NCBI GenBank assembly: GCA_045863235.1
Contig: BTUM01000027.1
Coordinates: 20,667 to 84,666 of the forward strand
Length of the DNA: 64,000 nucleotides
Direction of reading: 5' to 3'
Source: Candidatus Xenobia bacterium
GTDB lineage: Bacteria; Vulcanimicrobiota; Xenobia; Xenobiales; QWHO01
The translations under genes and the position numbers were made by a program. Shown piece by piece: positions 33,682 through 58,787 of the stretch. The notes beneath the pieces are model-generated. The model was not told the DNA's origin. It made no database searches and worked only from the letters and a program-made list of their open reading frames with translations. Each line of letters starts with the position of its first letter. The stretch's first letter is position 1.

Positions 33682-35103
33682 TCAGCTTCGGAAATACTGG
33701 TGCCACATCTCGTTGACGCGTTGCATGGTCATCGCCTGGTTGACGGTCGACTCCTGGAAGGTCTTCATCCAGTAGTCCATGGTTTCTTTCATGATCTTCC
33801 AGCGCTCGGCCTCATGCTTTTGCCGCTCGGCCCAGATCTGCATCCAGATGTCGCGAGCCCCTTCCTGGTCCTGAAGGATCTGCTGCATTCGGCGAGCCTG
33901 GTCAGCCGCGGACATGGTCGGGCCGCCAGGACCACCGGGGCCTCCCGGGCCGGACGGGGGAATCCCGCTCCCGCCGGGCGGAACACCGCCACCACCGGGC
34001 GGGATGCCGCTCCCACCGGGCGGAACGCCGGTCCCCCCAGGGGGAATTCCGCTCCCTCCGGGTACGAATGCGCTGCCCCCAGGAGGCACACCGCCGCCGC
34101 CTCCAGGGGGAAGGCCCGAGCCGCCTCCAGGAGGAGTTGCTCCGCCTCCATTACCGGGCGCCTCGGCCACCGGCGAGGAGAGCAGGCCCGGAGCATTGGT
34201 GGAGCCGAGCAGCTGCTGCGCGGGTGGGCCTTGCAGGGCCAGACCGGACTGCTGGCCGACCAGCTGGTTTCCGCCCGGAGCCACGGGACCGCCGCCGTTG
34301 CCGGCCAGAGTCACCAGGTTCGTCCCGGCGGGAGTGCCGCCCAGGCTGTAGACCAGGCCCCTGCCCGTATTGGCGATCTGCTCCATCAGGCCGTACTGAC
34401 TGAGCTTGTCTCCGTAGGCTTTGAGCTCGGCGTTGCCAGGATCACTGGCCAGTTGAGCCGCGACTTCTTTGCTGGCTGCCTGACGGAAGATATCGATCGC
34501 GGGCGTCTGCTTGCCGGCTGCCCGATCGGCTTCGAACGCCTGGTTCAAAGCATCTCCGAAGGCAGGATTCTTAGCCAGTTGCGGGGGAACGTTGGTGCTG
34601 ATGTCGCCTTCCAGCTGGTTCAGTTGCGCAGAGGCCACATTGATGGCCGCCTGACCAGCGGCCGCGCCACCGGGCAACCCCTGACCCATCAGAGCCTTCC
34701 CCTCGTTCGCGAAGGCTGACTTGAAGCCATCCGGCGCCACCGAGACCAGCTCCACAAGCTGTTTGCCAAGTTGCTCAGGATCAAGAACTTCGGCCTGGCT
34801 CCCCGATTCGGCCCGAGGGGTGTTCTCGCGCCTGACCAGCTCGCGCGACTGGGACTCTTCGCCCTGGCGCGTCTGCTTGGCGCCGGCCTGGCCGGTGAGG
34901 CCCAGGTGGGTCGCGTTCTCCAGGTGCTCAGCGTGACGCTCCTGGTGGCTGAGGGTCACCTCGTCGTTTCGCTGCTCGACGGAGGTTCCGTCCGTCTTGC
35001 GAGTGGTTCCGGTGACCGCAGTCTGGCCCACGTGCTCGGTGCGCTTGACGAGGGCCTGCTGATTCCCGACCGCCGGATTGATGGGACTTCCACTTGTAGC
35101 CAC
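33682..35103 (-). CDS. 473-aa protein with PPGG linker and C-terminal domain homologous to the 81-aa triplicated protein
   Basis: SD AAAGGAG then GTG 35103; C-terminus aligns without gaps (AERWKI..ET, TVNQA, W..Y..S). Confidence 0.82.
   Translation of the reverse strand: MATSGSPINPAVGNQQALVKRTEHVGQTAVTGTTRKTDGTSVEQRNDEVTLSHQERHAEHLENATHLGLTGQAGAKQTRQGEESQSRELVRRENTPRAESGSQAEVLDPEQLGKQLVELVSVAPDGFKSAFANEGKALMGQGLPGGAAAGQAAINVASAQLNQLEGDISTNVPPQLAKNPAFGDALNQAFEADRAAGKQTPAIDIFRQAASKEVAAQLASDPGNAELKAYGDKLSQYGLMEQIANTGRGLVYSLGGTPAGTNLVTLAGNGGGPVAPGGNQLVGQQSGLALQGPPAQQLLGSTNAPGLLSSPVAEAPGNGGGATPPGGGSGLPPGGGGGVPPGGSAFVPGGSGIPPGGTGVPPGGSGIPPGGGGVPPGGSGIPPSGPGGPGGPGGPTMSAADQARRMQQILQDQEGARDIWMQIWAERQKHEAERWKIMKETMDYWMKTFQESTVNQAMTMQRVNEMWHQYFRS
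33950..34145 (-). repeat. Coding 21-bp tandem repeat ([LVI]PPGG[GST]G, ~8-9 units)
   Basis: Visible in the translation: LPPGGGG-VPPGGSA...IPPGGTG-VPPGGSG-IPPGGGG. Confidence 0.8.
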
Positions 35104-35134
35104 GAAGCTCGCTCCTTTATCCCAGGTGTGTGGA

Positions 35135-35190
35135 GTATACCAGCCTGCGCTGAAGGCGTAAACGTCGAGTTTGTTTCCAAACTGTAAACA
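35135..35190 (-). promoter_or_regulatory. Promoter TTTACG-N17-TATACT with upstream box TGTTTCCA-aac-TGTAAACA
   Basis: Read directly; box at 35172-35190. Confidence 0.6.
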
Positions 35191-35319
35191 GATGGCCAAT
35201 CCGATAAATGTTAAAGCCCCGGGCGCCTGGAGCGTGGTCGGGCGTCGCGCAGCCGGAAATTGCCTCCGGGGCGCGACGACCACCCATCCACCGAGCCCAG
35301 AAAGCCCGGCGGCATCGGC

Positions 35320-35565
35320 CTAGCTCTTGATGTAGTCGCTCCATTTGTTGAACATCTTGTCCTGCGTCTTGGCCTGGTTGACGGTCACGTCCTGCTGAAT
35401 CTCGAAAATCTTCGTCTGTGTCTCGCGCAGAATCTTCCAGCGCTCGGCCTGCTGCTTTTGCGTATCGGCCATCATCTGGGTCTGAATGGTCTGGGCCTGC
35501 ATCTGGTCGCTCAGGGCCATCTGGGCGATCGAGGCGGCGTTGGCGGCTCCACCGATGAGTAACAT
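35320..35565 (-). CDS. 81-aa helical protein, copy 3 (candidate pilin/needle subunit)
   Basis: SD AGGAGGG; protein identical to copies 1 and 2. Confidence 0.88.
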   Translation of the reverse strand: MLLIGGAANAASIAQMALSDQMQAQTIQTQMMADTQKQQAERWKILRETQTKIFEIQQDVTVNQAKTQDKMFNKWSDYIKS

Positions 35566-35683
35566 GGTCGGTCCCTCCTGATTCTCTCTCTATCCCTCAA
35601 AAGTAGACGAAAGCTCTGAAAAAAAGCTGAGGGGCCGGCCTTGCGACCGACCCCGCAGAGAAAGCCCCACCCGATACAGGGAC

Positions 35684-35929
35684 TTAGCTCTTGATATAGT
35701 CGCTCCACTTGTTGAACATCTTGTCCTGCGTCTTGGCCTGGTTGACCGTGACGTCCTGCTGAATTTCGAAGATCTTGGTCTGCGTCTCGCGCAGAATCTT
35801 CCAGCGCTCGGCCTGCTGCTTCTGCGTATCGGCCATCATCTGGGTCTGAATGGTCTGGGCCTGCATCTGGTCGCTCAGGGCCATCTGGGCGATCGAGGCG
35901 GCGTTGGCTGCTCCACCAATGAGTAGCAT
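35684..35929 (-). CDS. 81-aa helical protein, copy 2
   Basis: SD GGGAGG; own promoter TTTACT-N17-GATAGA upstream. Confidence 0.88.
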   Translation of the reverse strand: MLLIGGAANAASIAQMALSDQMQAQTIQTQMMADTQKQQAERWKILRETQTKIFEIQQDVTVNQAKTQDKMFNKWSDYIKS

Positions 35930-36139
35930 TGTTTTCGGTCCTCCCGGGTGTGTTATTTTTGACTTCTCTGTCTTGGGACTTCTATCACGCGCCCGGGCCG
36001 GAAAGTAAAGATGCTTGTCTCTGTATCCGGGCAGTTTTCCTGAGGACGGCGGGTGACTTGCCGACCCGGCCGCAAGGCCGGGTCTGCAACCGAAAACGGC
36101 TCGACCTCGCGGCCGAGCCGGCTTGAAGCGGACCTGAGC

Positions 36140-36385
36140 CTAGCTCTTGATGTAGTCGCTCCACTTGTTGAACATCTTGTCCTGCGTCTTGGCCTGGTTG
36201 ACCGTGACGTCCTGCTGAATTTCAAAGATCTTCGTCTGGGTCTCACGCAGAATCTTCCAGCGCTCGGCCTGTTGCTTCTGCGTGTCGGCCATCATCTGGG
36301 TCTGGATGGTCTGGGCCTGCATCTGGTCACTCAGGGCCATCTGGGCAATTGAAGCTGCGTTGGCTGCACCACCGATTAAGAGCAT
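36140..36385 (-). CDS. 81-aa helical protein, copy 1
   Basis: SD GAAGGGG; own promoter TTTACT-N17-GATAAT upstream. Confidence 0.88.
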   Translation of the reverse strand: MLLIGGAANAASIAQMALSDQMQAQTIQTQMMADTQKQQAERWKILRETQTKIFEIQQDVTVNQAKTQDKMFNKWSDYIKS

Positions 36386-36421
36386 ACGTGAAACCCCTTC
36401 CAGCGTTTAGACTTCGCCCCT

Positions 36422-36495: not shown

Positions 36496-36810
36496 TCAAT
36501 CCACGTGCGTCTGGTTCACAACCAGTTTGACGCCTGCCGCCTTGAGGTCTTCCACCAGCTTCTCGTTGTTCTCGTAGAGGGTCAGCACGGTGGCGTCGCG
36601 GGCGGCCGTGACCACCACCTCCATCATTTCCAGAAAGAGCTTGGGATCCACCGAGGGGGACTCGGAAAGGCGCTTGAGCAGGTCGGTGTTCTGGGGACGC
36701 TTCATCTCCCGGGCCCAGCTCTCGAGATACATCCGATTGAAGATGCTGAGCATCGCGGGGGCGCTGAGGCCGAGCTGACCTTCCAGATCGCTGGCGGTGG
36801 CTTCTTCCAT
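36496..36810 (-). CDS. Small acidic hypothetical protein
   Basis: SD GGAGGT; 104 aa; directly follows the aminotransferase gene. Confidence 0.65.
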   Translation of the reverse strand: MEEATASDLEGQLGLSAPAMLSIFNRMYLESWAREMKRPQNTDLLKRLSESPSVDPKLFLEMMEVVVTAARDATVLTLYENNEKLVEDLKAAGVKLVVNQTHVD

Positions 36811-36816
36811 GTCGAG

Positions 36817-38163
36817 CTACCTCCTGACCACCGAGTTGATGCGGTTGGCGATATCCATCAAGTAACCGTTGATTCCCTGAGGCCCAATCTTTTGCATGTG
36901 ATCGAAGAGAGAACGCCAGGTCTCCAGCAGATGCTTGAGGTCGGCGTCGCTCGAGACATAGGGAGGCGACACTCGGATCACCTCAGGGCAGTGCACCATC
37001 GAGGTGAGCAGGATGCTGTGCTCCTCGCGAATCATCTCCTGCACGGTCAGGCCGACAGCTGGAGCCGTCGTGCACAGGCAGCGCATCAATCCCACGCCCC
37101 GATGGCCTACGGCAAGGTCCGGGAAGTCGCGGCACAGCTCGTCGAAGCCCTTCTCGAGGAGATTGCCCAGATGGGCTGAGCGCTCGACCAGTTTCTCGCT
37201 CTCGAGCGCATCCAGGGTGGCCACACCGGCCGCGCAGGCCAGCGGATTGCCGGCAAAGGTCGAGTTATTGAAGAGGGGTCGCGCCTCCTCGGCGGCCCGA
37301 ACTCGGGCCGAGTAGAGCACGGCTGAAACCGGGCAGACCGCGCCCGACAAAACTTTGCCGACACAGATCAGATCGGGCACCACTCCTGAGGCGTCCAGCG
37401 CGAACCAGCGGCCGGTGCGACCAAGTCCCGACTGGATCTCATCGGCGATCAGCAGGGCTCCGTGAGCATCGCAGAGAGCCCTGACCCGCCGCAGGTACTC
37501 GGGAGTGGCTACCGAGCAACCGGAAGCCCACTGGACCGGCTCGAGAATCACGGCGGCCACATCCGGTCCCATGGCCTTCTCGAGCGCGGCAACGTCCAGG
37601 AAGGGGACGATGGTCGCGTCGCTCAAGTTGGGCGTGCCGCTCTTCCAGTAATCGATGCCTCCCACGCTGAGGGTGCCGATCGACATTCCATGGTAGCCCA
37701 TGTGCATGCCGATGAAACGGGGGCGTCCGGTCGCCAGGCGCGCCAGCTTCAACGCCGCCTCCACCGCCTCCGTTCCCGAGTTGAGGAAGGCGCAGAAGGG
37801 CAGATTCCCCGGCACTCGCGCCGAAAGTCGAGCGGCCAGAACAGCTTGACCGGGCACGATGCCGGCTCGGGTCGAGAGCGCGGCGCGCTCGAGCTGTCGC
37901 TTCACTGCCTCGATCACTTTGGGATGCGCATGGCCCAGCCCGAAGGTACCCCCCGCACCCATGCAGTCATAGTAACGACGACCCCGAGGATCGATGAGAT
38001 AGGCGCCTTCCCCCCGCCACTCGACCAGGGCGCTGCCCAGAGCCCGCAAAGAGCGAGCCAGGGTGGGATTCATGTGCCTCTCCTGCAGGTCGAGCTGGTC
38101 GGCCAGCAACTGGGCGTACTCGGCTTCGTCGAGAACCTCGGGATAGTCCAACCAATCGCGCAT
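36817..38163 (-). CDS. Class III PLP aminotransferase (putrescine/ornithine-type)
   Basis: LGHAHP, NSGTEAVEAALK, DEIQSGLGRTG, PDLICVGKVLSG, TFAGNP. Confidence 0.9.
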   Translation of the reverse strand: MRDWLDYPEVLDEAEYAQLLADQLDLQERHMNPTLARSLRALGSALVEWRGEGAYLIDPRGRRYYDCMGAGGTFGLGHAHPKVIEAVKRQLERAALSTRAGIVPGQAVLAARLSARVPGNLPFCAFLNSGTEAVEAALKLARLATGRPRFIGMHMGYHGMSIGTLSVGGIDYWKSGTPNLSDATIVPFLDVAALEKAMGPDVAAVILEPVQWASGCSVATPEYLRRVRALCDAHGALLIADEIQSGLGRTGRWFALDASGVVPDLICVGKVLSGAVCPVSAVLYSARVRAAEEARPLFNNSTFAGNPLACAAGVATLDALESEKLVERSAHLGNLLEKGFDELCRDFPDLAVGHRGVGLMRCLCTTAPAVGLTVQEMIREEHSILLTSMVHCPEVIRVSPPYVSSDADLKHLLETWRSLFDHMQKIGPQGINGYLMDIANRINSVVRR

Positions 38164-38175: not shown

Positions 38176-40035
38176 TCAACGCACGGCGGCGATCAGCTCG
38201 CTCACCATGGTGTAGCGGTTTTTTCCGAACGGAGGGATCAGGTACACCCCCCGAATCTTCTTGCGAATCCGTGCCAGGAGGTCGTTTGTCAGCTCCATCG
38301 CCAGTTTCTGGCCATCCTCCGGTGTCTCAACCTTCTCGTACTGCGCCAGAATCTCCTCGGGTATGACGATTCCGGGGATCTTGCCGGCGGCGAAGAACTC
38401 GGCATTTCGTCGACTGGTGATGGGCAAAATGCCAACCAGGATGGGAATCGGGAGATGGGCGGTGGCCTCCAGCATCATGTCCACCTCCAACTCACGGTAG
38501 ACCGGCTGGGTATAGATGAACTGCGCTCCCGCTTCCACCTTCTGCTCCAGCCATTTGAGCTGAGCCTTGTGCCCGCGGCCGGGGTTAAAGCCCCCTCCGA
38601 TCATGAAGTCGCACCGGCAGCAGGGGGCCTGATTGAAAAGGCGACCCGCATTCATGCTCTTGATCAGGCGCATGAGGTTGACCGAGCTCTTGAGGTCGTT
38701 GACCCTGGAGGAGTACTTATCGTGGTCGCCCACATTGGGATGGTCGCCTGTCACGGCCAGCACCGCCCGGATGCCGGCGTGCCAGGCGCCCAGCAGATAG
38801 GATTGCACCGCGACTAGATTGCGATTGCAGGCCGAAAGATGGATCATGGTCGGGATCTGCGTCTCGCGCTGCATCTGGGCCGCCGACACCAGCGGGTCCA
38901 CGGTCACCTTGGCCCCAGCATTATCGGGCACGTCAAAAAGGTGGGCACCCTCCTGAGCAAGCTTCTTGCCAGCCTCGAGAAAGCTGGTCAGGGAATGCTC
39001 GCGGTTGGGGCGCATCTCGACCGAGATGACGAAATCGACGCTTTTAAAGACCTGCTCGAAGGGATTGGGCTCCTGCACCGCCTCGGGAGCGGGGGCAACC
39101 ACCTCCTGCACCCGTAGCGCACTGGGATGGCGCTCGGCGGGGGGCTTGAGACCCTCGACAGCCTGCTTGAGCATGGCGATGTGCGCCGGCTCGGTGCCAC
39201 AGCAACCGCCTACGATACAGGCACCCGCTTCGACCAGGCGCTTGCCGAACCGCTGGAACTGTTCGGGATTGACATGGTAGACCACGCGGCCCCGGTCGAT
39301 CTCGGGCGAGCCGGCATTGGGCATGGCCACCAGCGGCAGGTGGGTGAACTGAGCCAGGCGCTGGATGGTTTCCAGAACATCGTAAGGTGCTCGGCAGTTG
39401 GCCCCCATCAGATGGGCGCCCAGTCGGGTGGCCAGCAACGCGAACTCACTGATGTCAGCTCCGGTGCCGGTTTTCCCGTTCTGGACTCCGCCCACCTCGA
39501 ACAGCACTGGAACCCCGAAAGAAACGGCCTCGCGCAGGGCCGCCTGGGCCTCATAGAGCGACTGAAAGGTTTCCAGAGCCAGGAAGTCGACGCCGGCCTG
39601 CACCAGGGCCTCCATCTGCTCGTTGAAGATGGCCGCCACTTCGCTCTCTTCATACTCGTGGCGAATGTGGTGAATCTCGAGTGGGCCCACCGAGCCTCCC
39701 ACGAACCGCTCGGGACCGGCGCACTCGCGGGCCATCCTGACCCCCTCGATGTTGATCTCGCGGACCTCGTTGGCCAGCCCATGGCGGGCCAGCTTGATGG
39801 AGTTGGCTCCGTAGGTATTGGTGAGGAGAATGTCGGCACCCACCTCCACGTAAGAGCGGTGCACGGCCATCACCAACTGGCGATAGAGCGGGTCGAGGTT
39901 GAGGCCGTCCAGGCATTCGTGCCCGGCCCCGCGCAGACCCTGAAGCCGGGTGCCCATGGCCCCATCGCAGACCAGGACCCTGGTCTTGATGGCTTCCAGC
40001 AGCGTTTTCTTCGCAGTGATGGGCGCTTCCCACAT
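38176..40035 (-). CDS. Bifunctional homocysteine S-methyltransferase / methylenetetrahydrofolate reductase (YitJ-like)
   Basis: DGAMGT, GANC, PNAG, GGCCGT Zn ligands; C-terminal MTHFR domain (VTGD, KVEAGA, TQPVY). Confidence 0.9.
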   Translation of the reverse strand: MWEAPITAKKTLLEAIKTRVLVCDGAMGTRLQGLRGAGHECLDGLNLDPLYRQLVMAVHRSYVEVGADILLTNTYGANSIKLARHGLANEVREINIEGVRMARECAGPERFVGGSVGPLEIHHIRHEYEESEVAAIFNEQMEALVQAGVDFLALETFQSLYEAQAALREAVSFGVPVLFEVGGVQNGKTGTGADISEFALLATRLGAHLMGANCRAPYDVLETIQRLAQFTHLPLVAMPNAGSPEIDRGRVVYHVNPEQFQRFGKRLVEAGACIVGGCCGTEPAHIAMLKQAVEGLKPPAERHPSALRVQEVVAPAPEAVQEPNPFEQVFKSVDFVISVEMRPNREHSLTSFLEAGKKLAQEGAHLFDVPDNAGAKVTVDPLVSAAQMQRETQIPTMIHLSACNRNLVAVQSYLLGAWHAGIRAVLAVTGDHPNVGDHDKYSSRVNDLKSSVNLMRLIKSMNAGRLFNQAPCCRCDFMIGGGFNPGRGHKAQLKWLEQKVEAGAQFIYTQPVYRELEVDMMLEATAHLPIPILVGILPITSRRNAEFFAAGKIPGIVIPEEILAQYEKVETPEDGQKLAMELTNDLLARIRKKIRGVYLIPPFGKNRYTMVSELIAAVR

Positions 40036-45566: not shown

Positions 45567-45576
45567 AAGCCTCTCC

Positions 45577-46565: not shown

Positions 46566-46566
46566 C

Positions 46567-47839: not shown

Positions 47840-48016
47840 GTAGCGACCTCCACAGCCCATCCCCCCACCGAGTCAAGGGGCTTCGAGCCTTGTTGAGTGC
47901 TTTCCCGCCCCGGCAAGATTATAGCACTGACGCCAGGTCAGCACGATGAAACATTCGGCTCTCACGGAAACAGCCCAGGCCTTCCGGCCTGGGCACGCTT
48001 ACCGCGGGACTTGAAG

Positions 48017-50664: not shown

Positions 50665-50788
50665 GCCGGGTTCCTCCTTCGCTATCCGGGACTGCGATGG
50701 CAACACCACGTTAAGCCGGGTGGTAGGCCGGAGGAAGTCCAGGGGGCGATTGGGCGCATACTCAGTATAGCTGTCCAGCCTCCCGGGG

Positions 50789-51265
50789 TCAACATTCCGA
50801 CTTCCCTCCGGTCGCCTGCTCGCGAGCGAACTTGATGGTAGCGAGCTCGTCGATCATCTTGGCTTCCTCGTAGTCCATCTCGGCCTGCCAGGCCTCCTGG
50901 CTCTGCTCCTTGTGTTTTTCGTAAGTTTTTCGCTTCATGGCGGCTTTGAGAAGATTCTCTCGCTGTTGGACGATCGCGATGGCAAGTTCTTGCAGGCGAA
51001 GCTCCTGATACTTGATCTTGTTCTCGAGGCTCTTGATGTGCTGCGGGTAGAACCGCAGCTCGTTGATGCTCACCTGGCCCACGGCCTGCTTGTGGCGCAC
51101 CTCGATGTGTGTCTGTTGCAGCTGATGCTCGAGCTGGGCTTTGACCTGGCGCTCGTGGGCCTCTTCCTGAATCAGCTTGCCGAGCTTCTCTTTCTCTTCA
51201 TCTTCCTTCTTACGGGCCAGCTCGAGCACTTTCTCGAGACGATATCGAAAGCGTTTGGGGGGCAT
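50789..51265 (-). CDS. fliJ: Export stalk FliJ
   Basis: FRYRLEKVL start, coiled coil, EAKMIDE; follows fliI. Confidence 0.87.
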   Translation of the reverse strand: MPPKRFRYRLEKVLELARKKEDEEKEKLGKLIQEEAHERQVKAQLEHQLQQTHIEVRHKQAVGQVSINELRFYPQHIKSLENKIKYQELRLQELAIAIVQQRENLLKAAMKRKTYEKHKEQSQEAWQAEMDYEEAKMIDELATIKFAREQATGGKSEC

Positions 51266-52593
51266 TAGCGGTTCATCAGCTCGAGCAGACGATTGCGCGT
51301 TTCCTCAAACGGAGCCGGATCGTAGATTCCCTGCGTGAGGAAGGCGCGGACCTCATCGATCATCGCGATGGCATAGTCCACCTTGGGGTTGGAGCCTCGC
51401 TGGTAGGCGCCAATATTGATCAGGTCCTCTTGCTCGCCATAGGTGGCCAGCACGCCGCGCAGCTTCATGGCCGCAGCCTGATGCTCCTTGGGGTTGATCT
51501 CGGTGAAAAGACGCGAGACCGACTGCAGCACATCCACGGCCGGGTACTGGTTCTTGTGGGCGATCTTTCGGTTGAGCACGATATGGCCGTCCAGAATGCC
51601 GCGCACCGTGTCGGCGATAGGCTCGTTCATGTCGTCGCCCTCAACCAGCACCGTGTAGATAGCGGTAATGGTGCCGCGCGGAGAGGTGCCCGCGCGCTCC
51701 ATCAGCTTGGGCAGAAGAGCAAACACCGAGGGGGTGTAGCCCTTGGTGGCGGGAGGCTCTCCCACCGCCAGGCCCACCTCGCGCTGGGCCATCGCAAAAC
51801 GCGTCACCGAGTCCATCATCAAGATGACGTTCTTGCCCTGGTCGCGGAAGTACTCGGCCACAGCCGTGCCGGTGTAAGCAGCTTTCAGGCGCACCAGGGC
51901 GGGCGTGTCCGAGGTGGCCACCACCACTACGGAGCGAGCCAGGCCGGCCTCGCCCAGGTCACGCTCCAGGAAGTCGCGCAGCTCGCGGCCGCGCTCTCCC
52001 ACCAGAGTCAGCACGTTGACATCGGCCTCTGCGGCATTGCGCGCGATCATCGAGAGGGTGGTCGACTTACCCACCCCCGAGCCGGCAAAAATCCCGACGC
52101 GCTGGCCCTTCCCGAAAGTCAGCATGGAGTCGAGCACCCGCACTCCCAACGGCATCACGTGCTCGATGCGGGGTCGCGTGATCGGGTTGGGCGGATCGTT
52201 GTAAATGGGCACCTCAACCTCATACTCCAGGGGCCCTTTGCCGTCGATGGGCTCGCCCAGCCCGTCCAAGACACGCCCCAGCATCTTGGGGCCCACCTTG
52301 ACCGACAGGGGCTTGCCCATGCCGCGCACCTCGCAGCCGGGCCCGATGCCTCCCATGTCGCCCAGGGGCATCAGCATGACCTTGTTGGCTTTGAACCCCA
52401 CCACTTCGGTGCGGATAGGCGGGCGGCCCGTCTTGTCATAGACCAGGCACAGCTCGCCCATCTTCACAGCCGGACCCTCGGACTCGATCGTCAGACCGAT
52501 CACCTGCTGCACGCGGCCATGCATCTTGACGGTGTGAATCTGGGGCAGCAGGCGCTCAAAGCGGTCGAAGTTCAATTTCAGCTCAGTTTCCAC
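51265..52593 (-). CDS. fliI: Export ATPase FliI
   Basis: AGSGVGKST, GERGRE, MDSVTRFAMAQRE, GEPP, DGHIVL. Confidence 0.97.
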   Translation of the reverse strand: METELKLNFDRFERLLPQIHTVKMHGRVQQVIGLTIESEGPAVKMGELCLVYDKTGRPPIRTEVVGFKANKVMLMPLGDMGGIGPGCEVRGMGKPLSVKVGPKMLGRVLDGLGEPIDGKGPLEYEVEVPIYNDPPNPITRPRIEHVMPLGVRVLDSMLTFGKGQRVGIFAGSGVGKSTTLSMIARNAAEADVNVLTLVGERGRELRDFLERDLGEAGLARSVVVVATSDTPALVRLKAAYTGTAVAEYFRDQGKNVILMMDSVTRFAMAQREVGLAVGEPPATKGYTPSVFALLPKLMERAGTSPRGTITAIYTVLVEGDDMNEPIADTVRGILDGHIVLNRKIAHKNQYPAVDVLQSVSRLFTEINPKEHQAAAMKLRGVLATYGEQEDLINIGAYQRGSNPKVDYAIAMIDEVRAFLTQGIYDPAPFEETRNRLLELMNR

Positions 52594-53641
52594 TGGACAG
52601 CTCCGTCTCCACCAGTTCAGCAGTCTCCTCGAAGGCAGCGGTGATGGCGGCCATCTTGGTGGCCAGACGCGCATCCACATTGCCCAGGTTGGTCTCCAGC
52701 ACGCAACTGCCGGGATCGAGACTGGCGTCCGCTTGCACCTCGAACTTCTTCAGGCCCTCCACCATCTTTTCGAACTCCGGCTGGTGCTTCTTGGCCTGCT
52801 CGAAGTCGTCGGGGTGGCAACGAATGGTGATCTCCTCTCGGTCCTTGATGCCCGACAGAGCGTCGCGCACCACCCCGACGATGACCTCGGGATTGCTCTT
52901 GATCTCAAGTCCCAGCACCCGCTCAGCGATCTTCACCGACAGGCGCGCAAGCTCAGGCTCGGCCGCCTTGAGGACGCGCTCGCGCTCGGAGACGAACTGG
53001 CGGAACAGGATCTTGAACTCTTCCACGACGCCCGCCAGCTGCTGCTTGCCGGCCTCGAGACCCTCGCTCTTGCCCTGCTCGAAGCCCTGCTCGCGGGCCG
53101 TCTTCTCGGCCTCCTTCACCTGCGCCTGAGCTTCCTCCTTGAAGCGAGCTGCCTGCTCCTGAGCGTCGGTGATGATCTGCTGGGCCTTGCGGCGCGCCTC
53201 CTCGAGGATCTGCTCGTCGATGGGGGGTGGAGGCGGCGGGGGCGGCGCGGCGGGCGCCGCCGGCGCCCCCCCCCAGGTCGGGCCGGCAGGGGGCGCCGGC
53301 GCAGGCGCGGGCGCGGGCGGAGGGGGGGGCTCGTCCCCCCCGACCCGGACGGTGGTCTTGATGGGCGGCAGGCGCGGGTCAGCCGGTCCGGCCGGACCGG
53401 GAGCCTGGGCCACGCCGTGGCCGATGAGGCGGGTGCTGACCGGCTCCACTCGCGGAGGCTCGGCCGCCTCCACGAACTCGCTGGATGCTTCCTCCTGGGC
53501 CGGCGGTGGGGGAGGAGGGGGTTCGGAAAAGCCAGCCTCGTCCGGGCCTACGAACTCGCTGGAGCGGTAAAGGGCGGAGTGTCGCCCCCCATCCTTAGGA
53601 GTCGCTGCTGTCTCTCCAGGCTTTTTCTTAATGAGCGCCAG
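52583..53641 (-). CDS. fliH: FliH with long Pro-rich N-terminal extension
   Basis: AxxxGxxxGxxxG motif, C-terminal GSCVLETNLGNVDA; frame open back to CTG 53641 (MALIKK); GTG 53473 is an alternative start. Confidence 0.88.
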   Translation of the reverse strand: MALIKKKPGETAATPKDGGRHSALYRSSEFVGPDEAGFSEPPPPPPPAQEEASSEFVEAAEPPRVEPVSTRLIGHGVAQAPGPAGPADPRLPPIKTTVRVGGDEPPPPPAPAPAPAPPAGPTWGGAPAAPAAPPPPPPPPIDEQILEEARRKAQQIITDAQEQAARFKEEAQAQVKEAEKTAREQGFEQGKSEGLEAGKQQLAGVVEEFKILFRQFVSERERVLKAAEPELARLSVKIAERVLGLEIKSNPEVIVGVVRDALSGIKDREEITIRCHPDDFEQAKKHQPEFEKMVEGLKKFEVQADASLDPGSCVLETNLGNVDARLATKMAAITAAFEETAELVETELSSGN

Positions 53642-53651: not shown

Positions 53652-54641
53652 CTACTTGAACTTGATCTTGCCCAGTGTCACCAGACCACGCAAGATGTTG
53701 CGGATCTGCTGCTGAGCCGACTTGATCTCTTCCCAGGGAACCTGGCCCAGGCTCTCCACGTCGTCGCGCAGAGCCCGAGCGACCTCGGGCGAGAGGAACC
53801 GGTAGATTCTTTCGCCCAGCTCCTTGTTGGCGCCTTTCAGGGCCAGCACCAGGTCACGAAAATCGGTCAGGCGGAGCACCTGTTGCAGCGAGCTGTCATC
53901 GATGTTGTTGAGATCCTCGAAGTCGCACAGTTTCGTCTTGATGTCGCTGGCCAGGTGCGGGCTCTTCTGGGTGAGTCCGGAAAGGATCTTCTCCTCGGTA
54001 TTGCGGTCTGCCTGATTGAGGATCTCGAGCAAGGCTTCCTTGCCGTCGGCGTGGGTCTGAAAGCCTTCGTCCAGTGCCTGCTGCAGGCGGCCCTCGAGCA
54101 CCCGCTCGACCTCGTCGAGGATCTCCTTGGAGATCTTGCCCAGTTCGGCCAGTCTTCGGGCCACTTCCGTCTGGACCCCGGGGCCGAGCTCGCCTAGCAC
54201 CGCCGAGGCCTGATTGGGCTCGAGGTAGCTCAGGACCAGGGCGATGGTCTGAGGATGCTCTTTACGAATCAGGTGAATGAGCTGACGCGGGTCGACCCGC
54301 CGGAGAAAGCCCAGGGGCCTTTTCTGGCCCGAGCCGGTCATCCCCATCCCACCCACGCTCAAAGTGGCCGAAGGGCGCGAGTCCATGATGGCCGTGCCCA
54401 GCCCACCCCCGCCTCCGGCGGCCGCTTCGCGCAGGCCGGGCACGTTCGTGGACTGCAAGAACTCCTCGATGACCTGCGCCCGCACCTCAGGGGAAATCTG
54501 GGGGAGCTTGGAGATCTCGAGAGTGATGGCCTGGACCTCCTCAGGGCCAAGCTCCTTGAAGAGCTGGGCAGACACCTCGGGAGGCAGCGACATCAGCAGG
54601 ATGGCGGCCTTTTGCTTGGGGGGCAGGTTGACGGTGGAGAT
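53652..54641 (-). CDS. fliG: C-ring protein FliG
   Basis: KAAILLMSL, EHPQTIA, ALKGA, LRDD; SD AAAGGAGG 7 nt before ATC 54641. Confidence 0.92.
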   Translation of the reverse strand: MSTVNLPPKQKAAILLMSLPPEVSAQLFKELGPEEVQAITLEISKLPQISPEVRAQVIEEFLQSTNVPGLREAAAGGGGGLGTAIMDSRPSATLSVGGMGMTGSGQKRPLGFLRRVDPRQLIHLIRKEHPQTIALVLSYLEPNQASAVLGELGPGVQTEVARRLAELGKISKEILDEVERVLEGRLQQALDEGFQTHADGKEALLEILNQADRNTEEKILSGLTQKSPHLASDIKTKLCDFEDLNNIDDSSLQQVLRLTDFRDLVLALKGANKELGERIYRFLSPEVARALRDDVESLGQVPWEEIKSAQQQIRNILRGLVTLGKIKFK

Positions 54642-54690
54642 GGCAGAGCCTCCTTTCCTGGTCCACTTCGCCCGCTCGGGGCCCGATCTC

Positions 54691-55557
54691 CTACTTGAGC
54701 CAGCGCTCGCGGAGCTTCCGTGCAAAAGCGGCCGGGTCTTCGCTGGCCAGTTCGTTGGCCAGATCGACCTTGAACGTGTCCAGGCGTCGACAGACACGGC
54801 GCCTCAGGTCCGGGGCCATCTGCTCGAGCACGGCCGTGCGCTTGGAGGGCTCGAGGCTGCGCAACAGGAGTGCGATGGTGGGAGGGTCTTCCCCCTCGAG
54901 CAGGTGCAAGAGCTGGGTGCGGTCCAGGCTCTGGAGCAGGCCAGCCAGAGGCGAGCGGGTGCTGGACTCAGGCAACTCGAGAAACTCGCTCAGCACACGG
55001 TCGCGATCCTCCGCGGTTGTTGGCGGCAAGTGAGCAATCTCCCGAGTGATCGCTTCCACCTCTTTGGGTCCAAGCTCTTTGAAGAGCTCGGCAGACACAG
55101 CAGGGGGCAGCGACATCAGCAGAATGGCGACCTTCTGGCGACTCCTCAGACCGGTCGAAACTGTGGAAAGGGCCCCGACGCAGTCGGACTGGATCAAAAG
55201 CGAGCGCAACTGGGCCTTCATCCACTCCCCGTCTCGTCTGGCCAAGCGCCGGATGTGCCGAGTGGGGTCAGACTCAGCGATGGGAAGCCGGAAATACTCG
55301 CAGGGACCTTCACGTCGATGCTGCAGCAGCGGCTCGCATGCCCAGAGCGTGGGCCAGCGACGCGAGTGAAAGATCTCCTCCAGGTGCTGCATCTCCGTGA
55401 ACAGTGCCTGGCGCTCCTCGCTTCCGAGTTGCTCGAGCCAGTCCAGCGGAGCCTCGCGGCCCATGGCCAGAAGTGTCAGCGCAAGCCGCCGCAAGGGAGT
55501 CAACTCGACGTACGGAATCGTCCTCACCCCTTCAGCCGTGGTCGTCGTGGTGGTCAC
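54691..55557 (-). CDS. Divergent FliG paralog (FliG N/M domains plus FliF-like C-terminal tail)
   Basis: KVAILLMSLPPAVSAELFKELGP nearly identical to fliG; EDPPTIALLL; ends LASEDPAAFARKLRERWLK. Confidence 0.75.
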   Translation of the reverse strand: MTTTTTTAEGVRTIPYVELTPLRRLALTLLAMGREAPLDWLEQLGSEERQALFTEMQHLEEIFHSRRWPTLWACEPLLQHRREGPCEYFRLPIAESDPTRHIRRLARRDGEWMKAQLRSLLIQSDCVGALSTVSTGLRSRQKVAILLMSLPPAVSAELFKELGPKEVEAITREIAHLPPTTAEDRDRVLSEFLELPESSTRSPLAGLLQSLDRTQLLHLLEGEDPPTIALLLRSLEPSKRTAVLEQMAPDLRRRVCRRLDTFKVDLANELASEDPAAFARKLRERWLK

Positions 55558-55607: not shown

Positions 55608-57242
55608 TTAGCCGCCCTGGGACAGCCAGGTGCTCTTGAGCATCTCAGCCACCTTGGTGGGACGCTCCTTGGCCAGCTTCTCAAGCTGCTCGGTCGTGTT
55701 GACGCGGGTCTCGCCCATCGCAGTGGTCTTGCCGCTCTTCTCGTTGAGCAGGTCAGAGATGTCGCTGGAAGTCGCTCCACCGGTGGCACCGAGCAAGGGG
55801 GCCGACTTGTCGACCTGCACCTTGTGCTGCTTGAGGAGGAACACGGCCACCACGGCCAGGAGGATCATGGCCGGGAAGAACATCATCAGGGCCACAACCT
55901 TGCCGTCGATCGCCGGGACCGCGGAGACCTGGCGAGGAACCGGGTTCTCGAGGGCCGCCTGGCCCTCGCGGATGGCGCTGGGCATGCCGCCCATGAAGGG
56001 CATGCTGATCACGGTGCAAGAGTCGCCGCGGCTCTCGTCGAGACCCACGGTATCCTTGACCAGGCCGGCGATCATGGCGCGCTTGTCTTCGGGAATGTTG
56101 TCCACGGCCACGCTGCAGGTGATACGCTTGATGCGCGGAGCACGGTCGACGACCTTGGCGACGGTCTCGCTGGCTTCGTGCTTGGTGGCCTCTTTGATCT
56201 GCTCGTAGCCGCCCTTGCCGGTGGCGCTCGCCGAGGACATCTGGGCCCCGTTGTCGGAGTTGTCACCGCCGCTGCGGTCGTAACGCTCCACCTGCTTCTG
56301 GCTGCCGGTGAGGACCGTGGGCCCCATCACCTTGCGAGTGGTTTCGGTCTGAGAGAAGTCGTATTCCACGTTGACGGTTGCCACCGAACGGTTCGCGCCC
56401 AGCACCGCGTCGAGCGCGGCCTGAACCTTGGACTGCTTCTCCTGCTGGTCCTTCATGCGCAACTCGTCGGGATTCATCGCCCCGATAGCCCCGTTCTCGC
56501 CATTGGGGACCATGGCGGTCAGGTCGGTGCCCTCCTTGTCGACCACCTGCACGTTCTCGGGCTTGAGGTCGGGGACAGAGGCGGCCACCAGGCGCATCAC
56601 CGCTGAGATCTGGGCCCGGTTGAACTTGAGGCCGGGCTGCAGCTTGAGCATCACCATCGCGGTGACCTTACGCTCGTCGTCTTTGAAGTAGGTCATTTCG
56701 GGGAGGGCCAACTTGACGTAGGCATCGGTAACGCCGTCGAACTGGCGCAGCGTCTCGGTAATCTGGCCCTCGAGCACGCGCTGAGACATGGCCCGCTGCT
56801 GCGACTCGGTCACCGTGCCCATGCCCGCTTCGGGCAGCTTGGTCATCACCTCGTGGCGAGGGAGCCCGAACTCTGCCAGCTTGATCTGAGCCCGAGCGCG
56901 ATCCTTAGGATGGACCGTGATCTGGTCGCCGGTCACGCTCACCTGGTGATAAATTCCCAGTTCGGTCAGCTTGGACGCGACCTCGTTGACGTCGTTCTCG
57001 GTCATCTTCGTCGAGTAAAGCGACACCGGCCGATTGGAGGCGCTGATAACGCTGTAGCTCAGGCCGCCAGCCATCGCCAGCCCAATGACCACGAACAACA
57101 AAATCTTGACCTTAGGGCTGAGCTTGCCCCACAACTCGGTCACTTTGCCCAGCGGCCCACCTCCGCCAGGGCCTGCAGCCGCTCCACGTCCTGTTGCGAG
57201 CCTGCTGCCGGTTCGCATCCCCGTCTGGATCCCAGTGGCCAT
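55608..57242 (-). CDS. fliF: MS-ring protein FliF
   Basis: Two TMs, LEGQITETL, AYVKLALPE, LVAASVPDL..ENVQVVD, C-terminal LAKERP..VA..LKSTWL. Confidence 0.93.
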   Translation of the reverse strand: MATGIQTGMRTGSRLATGRGAAAGPGGGGPLGKVTELWGKLSPKVKILLFVVIGLAMAGGLSYSVISASNRPVSLYSTKMTENDVNEVASKLTELGIYHQVSVTGDQITVHPKDRARAQIKLAEFGLPRHEVMTKLPEAGMGTVTESQQRAMSQRVLEGQITETLRQFDGVTDAYVKLALPEMTYFKDDERKVTAMVMLKLQPGLKFNRAQISAVMRLVAASVPDLKPENVQVVDKEGTDLTAMVPNGENGAIGAMNPDELRMKDQQEKQSKVQAALDAVLGANRSVATVNVEYDFSQTETTRKVMGPTVLTGSQKQVERYDRSGGDNSDNGAQMSSASATGKGGYEQIKEATKHEASETVAKVVDRAPRIKRITCSVAVDNIPEDKRAMIAGLVKDTVGLDESRGDSCTVISMPFMGGMPSAIREGQAALENPVPRQVSAVPAIDGKVVALMMFFPAMILLAVVAVFLLKQHKVQVDKSAPLLGATGGATSSDISDLLNEKSGKTTAMGETRVNTTEQLEKLAKERPTKVAEMLKSTWLSQGG

Positions 57243-57324
57243 CGTAGGTCCTCTCCTTCCGATCCTCTCGATCCCCAAAACCCGGCTCTATCTGTGTGGC
57301 CCCCGGGCAAGGCCTGACTTCAGG

Positions 57325-57648
57325 CTACAGCTGCATCTGGAACAGCGTGGTCGTGGCTGTGGCCAGTTTGGAAGCGATGGTGGTGGTCATCTTCATCGCT
57401 ACCTCGGCTTTGGCGCCGGCGATGGTCATCTCGTGGATGTTGTCCATGTTGCCGGTGGCCAGAGCCTGGGTCATCTTCTTGGAGTTGTCTTGCACCGTGT
57501 TGACGGTGTTGATCGCATTGCCCAGAAGGGAGGCAAACGTGTTGGCCTGCTCTTCGGTGGGCTTGACGAGGGAGGGAGCCGAAGTACCGTCGAGGCCTTT
57601 GATGCCGCCGATACCACCGATGGGAGTCATGGAGAAGGGTTGCTGCAC
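57325..57648 (-). CDS. fliE: FliE
   Basis: FASLLGNAI..VN..Q, LATG...IHE..IA..KA, FQMQL end. Confidence 0.9.
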   Translation of the reverse strand: MQQPFSMTPIGGIGGIKGLDGTSAPSLVKPTEEQANTFASLLGNAINTVNTVQDNSKKMTQALATGNMDNIHEMTIAGAKAEVAMKMTTTIASKLATATTTLFQMQL

Positions 57649-57667
57649 TGCCTGTTCCTCCTAAATC

Positions 57668-58147
57668 TTAGCCCTTACCGATTTCCAAAGCCTTCATCGC
57701 CATCGCCTTGGCCGACTCGACCGTGGTGGCGTTCGCTTCGAAGGCGCGACTGGCCTGAATCATTGTCGTCATTTCCTGGATAATATTCACATTGGGCATG
57801 GCCACGTATCCCTTGTGGGGGCCGTCCTTCTCCGCGTTGGGATTGCCGGGGTCGTAGACCCAGCGATAGTCCGACTGGTCCTTCTCGATCCCCTGCACTT
57901 TGACCCCGCCACCGTGGAACTTGACCGGGTCTTTGTTGAGGTCGATATCGAAGGACGCAGTGGCAAAGTCGCTTTCGAACTCAGCCTTCATCTGAGGGGA
58001 TACCATCGCCACCTGGCGCTGATAGGGAGTGCCTGCCTCGGTCTTGGAGGTGTTGGCATTGGCGATGTTCTCGGAGATGACGTTCATCCGGAACTGCTCG
58101 GCCGACATTCCACTGGCCGCGATGTCAAAGGTCTGGAAAAACTTCAC
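57668..58147 (-). CDS. flgC: Rod protein FlgC
   Basis: ISENIANANT, PYQRQ, YDPGNP, MPNVNIIQEM, ASRAFEAN. Confidence 0.96.
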   Translation of the reverse strand: MKFFQTFDIAASGMSAEQFRMNVISENIANANTSKTEAGTPYQRQVAMVSPQMKAEFESDFATASFDIDLNKDPVKFHGGGVKVQGIEKDQSDYRWVYDPGNPNAEKDGPHKGYVAMPNVNIIQEMTTMIQASRAFEANATTVESAKAMAMKALEIGKG

Positions 58148-58166
58148 TGGTCAGCCTCCTTCGGAT

Positions 58167-58586
58167 TTAGCGACCGCTATTCTCGACGACCCATTTGAGC
58201 GCGCCATAGATCCCGGAGATCTTAGTAGCGAGCGCGTTGTACATGATCTGGTTCTTGGCCAGGCTGGCCATTTCTTGGTTGACGTCGACCTTGCCGACCT
58301 GGTCGACCAACTCAGGCTGCAGGCTGGCCATCGACCAACCGGTTCCATCCAGAGTGAACTCTTTGTCGACCGCCCCCGCCGCGCCGACCGCCACTTCACC
58401 GTTCTTCTCCGCATCCTCGTTGGCCATCGCCTCGCGGAGGTGGGTTTCGAAGACCACGGTCTGGCCCTGATAACCCGGAGTGTTGATGTTGGCAATGTTG
58501 TTGGAGATGACCTGCTGACGCATGCTGGCTGCGTTCAGCGCCTTCTCGAGCATAGTCGTGTCAACTATACTGTAAGGCTTGCCCAT
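58167..58586 (-). CDS. flgB: Rod protein FlgB
   Basis: RQQVISNNIANINTPGY, VDVNQEMASLAKNQIMY; SD GGAGGAG before ATG 58586. Confidence 0.93.
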   Translation of the reverse strand: MGKPYSIVDTTMLEKALNAASMRQQVISNNIANINTPGYQGQTVVFETHLREAMANEDAEKNGEVAVGAAGAVDKEFTLDGTGWSMASLQPELVDQVGKVDVNQEMASLAKNQIMYNALATKISGIYGALKWVVENSGR

Positions 58587-58746
58587 AATCGGTACTCCTC
58601 CCTGCTTTCGAACCCGTAGTGCCAAAAGCGGCTGGCCTGAGTTGTCGGGGACCGTCTCTGTCTGTAAGGTCCGTCCTGGTCGTCGCTGGTTGCTCAAACG
58701 CGCTACACGCAGAGCTTAAGCGCCTGTTTTCAGTGTATCGGCAGGC

Positions 58747-58787
58747 TGTTTCCAGCTTATTAGCGCTATGTTAACAGAGTGTTAACG
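58747..58787. promoter_or_regulatory. Phased boxes TGTTTCCA ... TGTTAACA-gag-TGTTAACG upstream of flgB
   Basis: Units at 58747, 58769, 58780 (multiples of 11 bp); further pair ACTTTACA-ttt-TGGAAACA at 58891-58909. Confidence 0.65.

Follow-up and report, generated by a model that had tools for sequence, protein, structure and literature searches.

What does a bacterium build with the base of a flagellum when, among the gene families searched for, its genome holds neither a flagellin, nor a hook cap, nor a stator? The question is raised by a locus of a Candidatus Xenobia bacterium (GTDB lineage Bacteria; Vulcanimicrobiota; Xenobia; Xenobiales; QWHO01; GenBank assembly GCA_045863235.1), which lies in a stretch of 64,000 nucleotides of contig BTUM01000027.1 (positions 20,667 to 84,666 of the forward strand; hereafter designated the window, to whose first letter all coordinates without a contig name refer). 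Between 33682 and 58787, the window carries an operon for a flagellar basal body with its type III export apparatus and, 3' of it, the genes of a multi-copy helical protein of 81 amino acids (aa). The locus is best read as the core of a type III export apparatus derived from the flagellum (hereafter system A), separate from the motility flagellum of some relatives (system B). From gene content and conservation, a strong case can be made that system A was derived from the flagellum as a distinct machine that is under selection, does not serve swimming, and is no decaying remnant. As to its product, we lean somewhat towards a static rod-and-stub apparatus through which the 81-aa proteins would be exported along with their long paralogues, perhaps forming a fibre.

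The window belongs to contig C27 of a genome (G000) of 8.36 Mb in 166 contigs, 97.59% complete, and the sequencing runs holding the stretch are labelled wastewater, sludge, bioreactor, and digester. Gene families were named by Pfam for the open reading frames (ORFs) of the window, with NCBIfam for closer typing. Comparisons were made with 44 genomes of the class (24 of high quality) and 401 of the phylum (247 of high quality); 14 phylum genomes flagged as unpublished were counted only in the phylum tallies of FliP and of the 81-aa family. Two relatives recur below, namely G034 (2.4 Mb, 20 contigs), an A-only genome of another family, and G005 (99% complete, 20 contigs), which has both A and B.

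One operon for a basal body and its export apparatus

The operon occupies 58697-40054 on the minus strand, from flgB to flhA, and is tightly packed with all its genes intact. It starts with the proximal rod genes flgB (58167..58697; Pfam Flg_bb_rod, 42.2 bits), upstream of which oppositely oriented, non-flagellar genes diverge on the plus strand (Mrp/ParA-type ATPase, DUF2330, RNase D), and flgC (57668..58147; Flg_bb_rod and Flg_bbr_C), followed by fliE (57325..57648; FliE, 61.7 bits) and the MS-ring gene fliF (55608..57278; YscJ_FliF and YscJ_FliF_C). Two fliG genes come next. The upstream one is a partial paralogue (54691..55557), in which a unique N-terminus of 135 aa precedes FliG_N and part of FliG_M without FliG_C, and no counterpart of which was seen in G034 or G005; the other is of full length (53652..54797, likely start near 54629; FliG_N/M/C). 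The ATPase complex is encoded by fliH (52583..53473; FliH, 75 bits), the T3SS (type III secretion system) ATPase gene fliI (51265..52680; ATP-synt_ab and T3SS_ATPase_C), and fliJ (50789..51265; FliJ, 47.6 bits). At the place of ylxF, between fliJ and fliK, is a gene for an SLT lytic transglycosylase (50020..50709; SLT, 109.7 bits), a position shared with G034 and the closed phylum genome G053; its top NCBIfam model, the BB0259 flagellar lytic transglycosylase, scored 97.8 bits, under cut-off.

A FliK-like length-control protein of 306 aa (49060..49980; Flg_hook, 51.1 bits) is followed by a short FlgE-like axial protein of 271 aa (48017..48832; LlgE_F_G_D1, Flg_bbr_C, and Flg_bb_rod), which is without a D2 domain, reaches 143.4 bits with the NCBIfam FlgEFG subfamily, and has FlgE models as its top equivalogs, all under cut-off. 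Then come fliM (46862..47860; FliM and FliMN_C), two copies of fliN (46567..46926 and 46266..46670; FliMN_C, 86.6 and 83.6 bits), fliO (45577..46269; FliO, 52.3 bits), fliP (44787..45869 as listed, true start probably near 45563; FliP, 257.7 bits), two copies of fliQ (44420..44719 and 44130..44477; Bac_export_3, 91 and 94.5 bits), fliR (43333..44499 as listed, true start probably near 44127; Bac_export_1 over residues 138-371), flhB with its NPTH autocleavage motif intact at residue 268 (42210..43310; Bac_export_2, 415 bits), and a full-length flhA of the A type (40054..42192; FHIPEP, 847.6 bits).

The window thus holds a complete MS- and C-ring set (FliF, FliG, FliM, FliN), and the Pfam matches of the export gate (FliP/Q/R, FlhA, FlhB) and of the FliH/I/J complex are all above cut-off. 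A first-pass annotation, made from the letters alone, had listed the same export apparatus, rings, proximal rod, and short FlgE/G gene, as well as duplications of fliG, fliN, and fliQ and an inserted SLT gene; Pfam supports all of these, with one fliG copy being partial. The gene order is what we take to be that of the flgB-type operon of Firmicutes, spirochaetes, and Thermotoga (B. subtilis fla/che). As the annotation had stated, the genes interleaved there are absent, since Pfam found no flgD, fliL, cheY, flhF, flhG, che, or sigma gene among the operon ORFs, and its remark that late and stator genes are missing from the window agrees with the finding of no further flagellar family among the remaining window ORFs scanned. 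Secretin, SctD, and needle SctF families likewise had no match among the locus ORFs scanned, a genome-wide secretin search not being made.

The rest of the genome completes the rod

The annotation had taken the rod to be limited to its proximal part, which holds for the window but not for the genome. A second locus (C74:1-4124) encodes a FliK-like protein (484 aa), an FlhB_C-like protein (99 aa), FlgF, FlgG, an FlgJ-type rod-binding protein (99 aa), and a sigma factor, whose gene is cut off by the contig end. The rod set of FlgB, FlgC, FlgF, FlgG, and FliE is therefore complete between the window and C74. In the same genome, profile searches gave no match for Flagellin_N, a model that covers FliC and FlgL, nor for FlgI, MotB_plug, or FlgD. 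Its Flg_bbr_C proteins number four, two from the window (FlgC and the FlgE-like protein) and two from C74 (FlgF and FlgG), and since none of them is FlgK-like, the genome has no FlgK-type protein. The sole MotA_ExbB gene sits in a TonB-receptor/ExbB/ExbD/TonB cluster; this stator candidate, on contig C90, adjoins ExbD and TonB and, being ExbB, was ruled out. LpxC was found in the genome search, indicating that the cell has an outer membrane.

System A is kept with and without a true flagellum

FliP was found in 42 of the 44 class genomes, including all 24 of high quality, the two misses being 71% and 85% complete. Flagellin was found in 10 of the 44, FlgD in the same 10, FlgI in 8 of those, and MotB_plug in 12, with its strong matches in the same 10 as flagellin; neither the genome of the window nor the other 33 class genomes without flagellin had a match for FlgD. 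In 18 high-quality class genomes, FliP is present without flagellin, FlgD, FlgI, or MotB, and the A-only genomes have exactly four Flg_bbr_C matches, as does the genome of the window. A second or further fliP, with a lower Pfam score, is listed for nine of the ten flagellin genomes (for G014, one fliP is listed), and in those checked (G022, G013, and G005) this second fliP adjoins flagellin, FlgL, or FlgD. A-type FliP scores about 260 bits, as against about 220-236 bits for the B type.

System B of G005 is a full, ordinary diderm flagellum. Its genes comprise fliI, a long fliK, flgD, a 419-aa flgE with D2, motA, motB, and fliP; csrA, fliW, flgL, flgK, flgM, flgF, flgG, flgA, flgH, and flgI; a 617-aa flagellin, fliD, fliS, a sigma factor, and a second motAB pair; and flhB, fliR, flgB, flgC, fliF, fliG, and fliH. 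Besides B, the same genome carries an A-type operon in the gene order of the window. Within the B clusters, an NlpC/P60 gene directly follows flgI, and a 395-aa frame adjoining fliW in the late cluster (L041:6284-7471) joins a CsrA domain to HisKA and HATPase_c, which could be a real fusion or an artefact of crude ORF calling.

In the A-only G034, the operon repeats that of the window in gene content and order, down to SLT, FliK, the FlgE-like protein (here 272 aa), and a pair of fliN, except that fliG and fliQ are single. Its second locus encodes a FliK-like protein of 485 aa, an FlhB_C-like protein, FlgF, FlgG, FlgJ_N, and a FliA/WhiG sigma factor; by NCBIfam, flgG reached 306.7 bits (cut-off, 252.75) and FliA 199.7 bits (cut-off, 189.6), and FlgG exceeds the equivalog cut-off in G005 as well. 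Pfam FlgM had no match in four A-only genomes and one match in G005. Two genes after fliA in the second A locus, both G005 (L060:9312-10454) and G034 (L059:9613-10779) encode a TPR protein, that of G005 being a weak match to the spirochaete periplasmic collar protein FlcA (38 bits, cut-off 300).

Across the phylum, FliP was found in 375 of the 401 genomes and in 230 of the 247 of high quality. The closed genomes G053, G142, and G104 (one contig each), together with G091, have one FliP and no flagellin above cut-off, and such closed genomes exclude assembly gaps as the explanation; G129, also a single contig, gave four Flagellin_N matches and two FliP. In G053, the one system present is further reduced and fragmented, consisting of a flgC-like gene, FliF and a FliG_M piece, fliI, SLT, a 272-aa FlgE-like protein, two fliN, and fliP, after which come MTHFR and transporter genes and then fliQ and flhA. 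Judging from the FliP count, a related, more reduced version of system A appears to be almost phylum-wide. The arrangement that would have spoken against the annotation, a full set of late, stator, and ring genes elsewhere with no second basal-body operon, was not found in the searches of the genome of the window.

FlhA phylogeny separates systems A and B

FlhA of the window scores higher with the flagellar FlhA chains of the PDB (503, 497, and 483 bits) than with the injectisome SctV chains (425 and 351 bits). A search of 1.84 billion representative proteins gave one cluster at 67% identity to it and a next best at 48%. A FastTree phylogeny was computed from 98 rows, namely seven A copies, five second copies, and 86 of the first 90 representatives (four outside 640-760 residues were left out, and the other 60 representatives were not used). 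In this tree, the A copies and a close representative formed a clade (support 95), and the second flhA of four relatives formed a clade of its own, B (support 99), among conventional FlhAs, where the neighbours looked up were labelled Nitrospinota, Nitrospira, and Parvibaculum. A quick IQ-TREE search under LG+G4 on a 47-row subset again gave an A clade (98) and a B clade (99), apart from each other. By both trees, A and B are distinct lineages; the trees are unrooted, contain no injectisome sequences, and include several rows of deviant composition, and they do not set the relative age of the two. The annotation had read the locus as an independent exaptation of the flagellar base that builds a novel filament. 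The separate, conserved, non-motility system in this claim stands, whereas its independence goes beyond the evidence of such trees and its filament is a proposal.

A branch with support 98 sets FlhA of G053, the A clade, and three long-branched representatives apart from the other rows, a grouping in which long-branch effects are possible. The second FlhA of G010 was considered as a B-type protein and ruled out, as both trees put it inside the A clade as a divergent paralogue. Genomes of genus g3 carry a second, divergent A-type system (A2 FlhA, branch length 0.5-0.6; G010:C21:61673-63676, L054), and some of them also carry B, giving up to three fliP per genome. In the genome of the window, five further FHIPEP matches (C80:28174-29157, C3:27006-27977, C1:377670-378254, C106:14902-15816, and C107:14606-15352) cover only the cytoplasmic C-terminal domain of FlhA (profile about 305-656) in frames of 450-750 aa. 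Such FlhA_C-only copies are also present in G005, G010, G013, and G022, and they could be adaptors of system A.

Losses in FliG and FliM and retained parts of a probable substrate switch

FliG of the A type, from three families, was aligned with its B-type counterpart from G005. In the torque helix, the A-type sequences have E/D and P/S at two positions at which the B-type sequence has R. We take these positions to be the stator-facing R281 and R297 of E. coli, the charged residues of the helix presumably being K264, R281, D288, D289, and R297 in E. coli numbering. The FliM N-termini of the A type (G000, G034, and G005; no B-type FliM was compared) are without an LSQxEIDALL-like peptide, a motif that is presumably the CheY-P binding peptide. 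The changes that the annotation had read as motility-specific losses in FliM and FliG are real and conserved, in three families for FliG and in three genomes for FliM. Together with the absence of MotAB, of the P ring (FlgI) in a lipopolysaccharide-bearing cell, and of flagellin, these changes make a static machine the simplest reading.

The NPTH motif of FlhB is kept in G000 and G034, and genomes without a known late substrate retain FliA, a free FlhB_C-like protein, and two FliK-like proteins. In flagella, FliK, FlhB, and FliA act in the change of export from the subunits of rod and hook to the late ones. Their retention implies that something is exported once the rod and stub are complete.

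A conserved 81-aa protein family past flhA

Three genes encoding the 81-aa helical protein lie downstream of the operon on the minus strand (copy 1, 36140..36385; copy 2, 35684..35929; copy 3, 35320..35565), followed by that of a long paralogue (33682..35103, minus strand; 473 aa from GTG), in which an N-terminal region and Pro/Gly-rich repeats precede a C-terminal domain homologous with the 81-aa protein. The downstream position noted by the annotation is correct, but two metabolic genes and a 104-aa gene separate the array from flhA. The three 81-aa genes encode an identical protein, and the 13-23 substitutions per 246 nucleotides between copies are all synonymous, which indicates strict purifying selection on the protein, not merely recent copying. 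The annotation had also placed these genes and the paralogue under a common upstream box. Their identity and homology are upheld, whereas the box is exact before only two of them: CTTTAC-N18-GATA[AG][TA]A has exactly two occurrences when both strands of the 8.36-Mb genome are counted, one before copy 1 and one before copy 2 (each with CTTTAC-N18-GATAATA), and copy 3 and the long paralogue have looser versions only. By eye, the box was seen in 11 of the 25 upstream regions inspected, from eight genomes of three genera; as a promoter, it agrees no worse with a sigma-70 type (TTTACT-N17-GATAAT) than with a sigma-28 type. RNA-library contigs from four runs of three studies cover the locus with few mismatches, which indicates presence in RNA, not expression level.

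The family was found in 38 of the 44 class genomes, with 1-9 matches each (mostly 4-9), often in tandem with a longer paralogue adjoining, and in 52 of the 401 phylum genomes, 14 of which are outside the class. By hand count of the listed matches, 26 of the 36 genomes with both genes have a copy 5.5-11.3 kb 3' of the A-type fliP and on its contig; this position is just past flhA, in several families, and the synteny extends to other classes of the phylum. The co-occurrence of the family with the operon, which the annotation had proposed to check, is thus seen as co-localisation. Among the listed matches of the other ten genomes, nine have the family and fliP on different contigs of fragmented assemblies. 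In the genome of the window, a mid-length paralogue of about 133 aa lies at C74:12716-12949 (plus strand), about 10 kb from the flgF-flgG-flgJ_N-sigma locus.

Searched against 5.8 billion proteins, the family gave 199 matches, none with a Pfam domain; nearly all are named hypothetical in their sources (one JGI label reads V-ATPase subunit H), and the organism labels seen are mostly Eremiobacterota names, with few others. In an alignment of 40 members, the N-terminus is variable, Gly/Ala-rich, and without a signal-peptide-like segment, and the C-terminal half is near-invariant; with the long paralogues, the 81-aa protein shares the C-terminal domain only. The AlphaFold (AF2) model of the 81-aa protein is one continuous helix over residues 3-80 with a mean predicted local distance difference test (pLDDT) score of 80. 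By language-model features, its nearest named clusters are HrpA_pilin (0.91 and 0.90) and HrpE-like (0.88), where a score of at least 0.9 as first match is reached by 4-10 per 100 shuffled queries. Pfam HrpA_pilin (PF09589) gave sub-threshold matches in constant register to 10 of the 40 members, the best at 21.5 bits against a cut-off of 25. We take these similarities to Hrp pilins as leads, not as membership. A profile search of the alignment against the PDB gave a chance-level match to CcdA only (E = 0.11) and none to a solved needle, pilin, or flagellin.

Genes around the small-protein module

The acidic, helical 104-aa protein (36496..36810, minus strand), immediately 5' of the array, is 42% identical to the product of the G034 gene at the same position; the gene is also present in G021, G022, G040, and G043, and its position 5' of the array is kept in three genera. 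The protein has an isoelectric point of 4.75 and a predicted four-helix model (pLDDT 82), no Pfam or NCBIfam match was obtained for it, and Foldseek of the model against the PDB gave nothing at E <= 0.001. Complex prediction of the 104-aa and 81-aa proteins scored 0.01, which gives no verdict and is evidence neither way.

The two metabolic genes between flhA and the module encode a homocysteine S-methyltransferase/MTHFR fusion (38176..40035, minus strand), which also follows flhA in G010 and was not found there in G034, and a class-III aminotransferase (36817..38163, minus strand). An MTHFR-domain gene lies within or beside the T3SS cluster in distant families, as in G053, where a plain MTHFR directly follows fliP (L062:12212-13090); this neighbourhood may reflect old synteny or a functional link. 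On the other side of the module, a convergent acidic 162-aa protein (33125..33613, plus strand) has counterparts at the same position in G034 and G010, there with a zinc ribbon; neither it nor the long paralogue has a Pfam or NCBIfam match. Next to it is a LolA-like secreted protein of 292 aa (32100..32978, minus strand; Pfam LolA_like, 20.8 bits, under cut-off), whose gene is syntenic in G034 and G010 by tblastn. Just past the module, the window encodes a peptidoglycan endopeptidase with LysM and NlpC/P60 (30450-31259, minus strand), and G010 has an endopeptidase of the LysM/NlpC/P60 type in the same neighbourhood (L044:11014-11754). Far from the locus, a bacterial alpha-2-macroglobulin of 1999 aa with MG2, bait-region, A2M, and bMG10 domains is encoded at 1956-7955 (minus strand).

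The slot past flhA is filled in G010 by an extra fliQ, the two metabolic genes seen in the window, an 81-residue protein of another, Q-rich kind, and two longer proteins whose helical C-termini are Trp-rich. The Q-rich protein was considered as a homologue of the family; hhalign of the 81-aa profile against it gave a probability of 5%, and homology is not demonstrable.

A static export apparatus and its alternatives

In the static apparatus that we lean towards, the machine would not rotate, and a rod and short stub would be assembled through the peptidoglycan. FliK and FlhB would then switch the substrate class, and late substrates would be exported. The top candidates for such substrates are the multi-copy, all-helical 81-aa proteins and the long paralogues just 3' of flhA; by analogy with the Hrp pilus, the near-invariant C-terminal helix may polymerise the 81-aa proteins into a thin fibre, and the acidic 104-aa neighbour might, at a guess, be their chaperone.

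Several findings weigh against this picture. We infer export and polymerisation from genes and a predicted structure, and the single predicted helix is unlike the helical hairpin of needle proteins or of flagellin D0. The signal for HrpA_pilin falls on the compositionally biased N-terminal half, and the language-model scores that point the same way are within reach of shuffled queries. A contig over the 81-aa repeat had a word depth of 102 and 146 against 8-19 for its neighbours in two runs of one study, a depth that cannot rank genes, since these are contigs assembled from RNA data, in which the three copies are merged into a single one. No candidate for an outer-membrane conduit was identified, a genome-wide secretin search not being made, and the absence of late genes from the genome of the window covers the families searched for, which did not include FliD, FlgH, secretins, or che genes. 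In the torque helix, A-type FliG also keeps the acidic pair and the lysine, and between families its FliG_C shares 70-79% identity, indicating that FliG still has a constrained partner.

The distribution of the family is uneven as well, and it gives weight to the explanation that system A is real and non-swimming but that the 81-aa protein is a bystander, for example a cytoplasmic or regulatory coiled-coil or an unrelated abundant protein, with other substrates being exported or a Buchnera-like conduit being formed. The family is missing from 349 of the 401 phylum genomes, most of which have FliP, and from all 297 sampled genomes of the largest phylum family; the core is therefore not dependent on it. 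The six genomes of genus g3 have an A-type fliP and no family match, the hhalign result for the protein in the G010 slot offers no substitute by descent, further copies are scattered over C69, C78, C3, and C74 in the genome of the window, and the nearest copy in G005 lies 48 kb from the operon. A long single helix without a match to solved needle, pilin, or flagellin sequences would suit a bystander too. Such a protein would nevertheless hardly be expected directly past flhA in 26 of 36 genomes, in several families and in other classes of the phylum, in tandem arrays under strict purifying selection, and with long paralogues that share only its C-terminal domain. Nor does a bystander account for FliK, FlhB with NPTH, and sigma-28 in genomes without a known late substrate, or for the 81-aa protein and two Trp-rich long proteins that G010 keeps in the same slot. 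We regard this explanation as unlikely. That system A is an unusual motility organelle, with a filament of the 81-aa or another protein and an unrecognised stator, maybe periplasmic as in spirochaetes, is less probable still. A complete C ring with a highly conserved FliG_C and the acidic pair, a complete rod with a hook-like protein, and the retained sigma-28 all fit rotation; a periplasmic flagellum would explain the missing L and P rings, the SLT resembles the spirochaete flagellar transglycosylase, under cut-off, and the TPR protein near the second locus of G005 weakly matches FlcA. However, MotB_plug was found in no A-only genome, the sole MotA-family gene in the genome of the window is ExbB, two stator-facing arginines of FliG are lost in three families and kept in the co-resident B FliG, FliM is without the CheY-binding peptide, and no FlgD, FlgK, or FlgL was found in A-only genomes. 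Moreover, genomes with a true flagellum keep A too, which argues for a different job. The only cultured member of the phylum, Vulcanimicrobium alpinus, is described in the main text of its report as having neither flagella nor a flagellin gene and moving by type IV pili (PMC9758169), and the single flagellar row found by term search in the supplements of that report is fliN in Table S8; this bacterium may thus have system A in its more reduced form.

Flagella are often lost piecemeal, and the genome of the window is in 166 contigs, with C74 ending inside the sigma gene; a decaying remnant of a lost flagellum, or a set of late genes left unassembled, might be suspected on these grounds. All the genes are intact, however, the gene set and order are kept across families, including in 2.4-Mb genomes, FliP is present in all 24 high-quality class genomes, and A-type FliP scores above the B type with Pfam. 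Closed, single-contig genomes show the same pattern of one FliP and no flagellin, which speaks against a gap. Decay or missing sequence is thus very improbable, and, as stated at the outset, a static apparatus exporting the 81-aa proteins and long paralogues is the reading towards which we lean. A bolder extension of it, which we consider possible but rather doubtful, is a third class of type III machine besides flagellum and injectisome. It would be ancient, near phylum-wide, and non-rotating and would keep the rod, hook stub, C ring, ruler, and sigma-28; a pilus-like fibre of 81-aa single-helix subunits would be built by it in Xenobia and allies, with the long paralogues as tip or adaptor, for use in attachment, cell-cell contact, or predation.

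Relation to known systems

System A is made of parts that all belong to known families. It resembles the flagellum in its core genes and in their order from flgB to flhA, in an FlhA closer to flagellar FlhA, in an FlgG above the equivalog cut-off in relatives, and in FliK, FlhB with NPTH, and FliA. It differs in giving no match for flagellin, FlgD, FlgI, MotB, or a protein of the FlgK/L type (the families searched for in the genome of the window did not include FliD and FlgH), in an operon without FliL, CheY, FlhF, and FlhG and with an SLT gene in place of ylxF, in a FliG minus two arginines and a FliM minus the CheY-binding peptide, and in that about 10 of 44 relatives carry it together with a complete flagellum encoded separately. 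As regards a hook, the FlgE-like protein of 271 aa is without D2 and under the FlgE equivalog cut-offs, and the cap protein FlgD was not found.

The injectisome, that is, the non-flagellar T3SS, has been reported to have evolved from the flagellum (Abby and Rocha 2012, PMC3459982). System A is like it in being a flagellum-derived T3SS with no flagellin or stator, in having a dedicated lytic transglycosylase, and in co-encoded small helical proteins that could form a needle- or pilus-like polymer. Unlike the injectisome, it keeps FlgB, FlgC, FlgF, FlgG, FliE, an FlgE-like protein, FliG, FliM, and FliO, has an FlhA of the flagellar type, and showed no secretin, SctD, or SctF family in the window (secretins were not searched for genome-wide). 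Hrp pilus subunits (HrpA_pilin, PF09589; HrpE-like, PF28047) are, like the 81-aa proteins, small, near-wholly helical, without a signal peptide, and encoded with a T3SS. They have no counterpart of the conserved C-terminal helix, however, the best score is under the Pfam cut-off and falls on the variable N-terminal half, and common descent is unsupported.

Buchnera aphidicola retains a flagellin-less hook-basal-body set, which is described as expressed in a non-motile cell and thought to act in protein export (PMC8109811). Flagellin-less basal-body genes are likewise kept in system A. The set of Buchnera is an eroded remnant of the only flagellum of a 0.6-Mb endosymbiont, whereas system A is a distinct paralogous lineage in genomes of 2-9 Mb, is class-wide, has its own small-protein module, and stands beside a true flagellum in some genomes. 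Transitions from flagellum to secretion are thus known from both the injectisome and Buchnera. Flagellar T3SS parts are also used outside the flagellum in the hat-shaped inner-membrane structure related to the flagellar T3SS that is described by Kaplan et al. (2022, PMC9380563), where a nanotube-associated core of this T3SS is mentioned too; these draw on the cell's own flagellar genes and, unlike system A, involve no dedicated paralogous operon with a rod, hook-like protein, and C ring. For related marine genomes, the supplementary table of Paoli et al. (2022, PMC9259500) gives TXSScan results with flagellar genes and an undecided "T3SS_putative", and, as far as that source goes, the flagellar genes are treated as flagella. 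A description of system A was not found in the literature on flagella and type III secretion of Eremiobacterota and Xenobia, of which the supplements may hold more.

Implications

The injectisome is the textbook conversion of a flagellum, and a second, independent-looking derivative would be a natural comparison for the study of such re-purposing. System A would be useful for it because it keeps the rod, hook-like stub, FliG, FliM, FliN, FliK, and sigma-28. It raises the questions of what FliG, the C ring, and the FliK/FlhB switch do without rotation or flagellin export, and of how the rod ends at the outer membrane without L and P rings. For annotation, matches to flagellar genes in these genomes should not be taken as motility. 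The 81-aa proteins constitute a new, highly conserved small-protein family with a testable role. System A is conserved in a poorly known, widespread phylum, whose marine Eudoremicrobiaceae are described as biosynthetically rich and proposed to have a predatory lifestyle (PMC9259500), and it may bear on their ecology.

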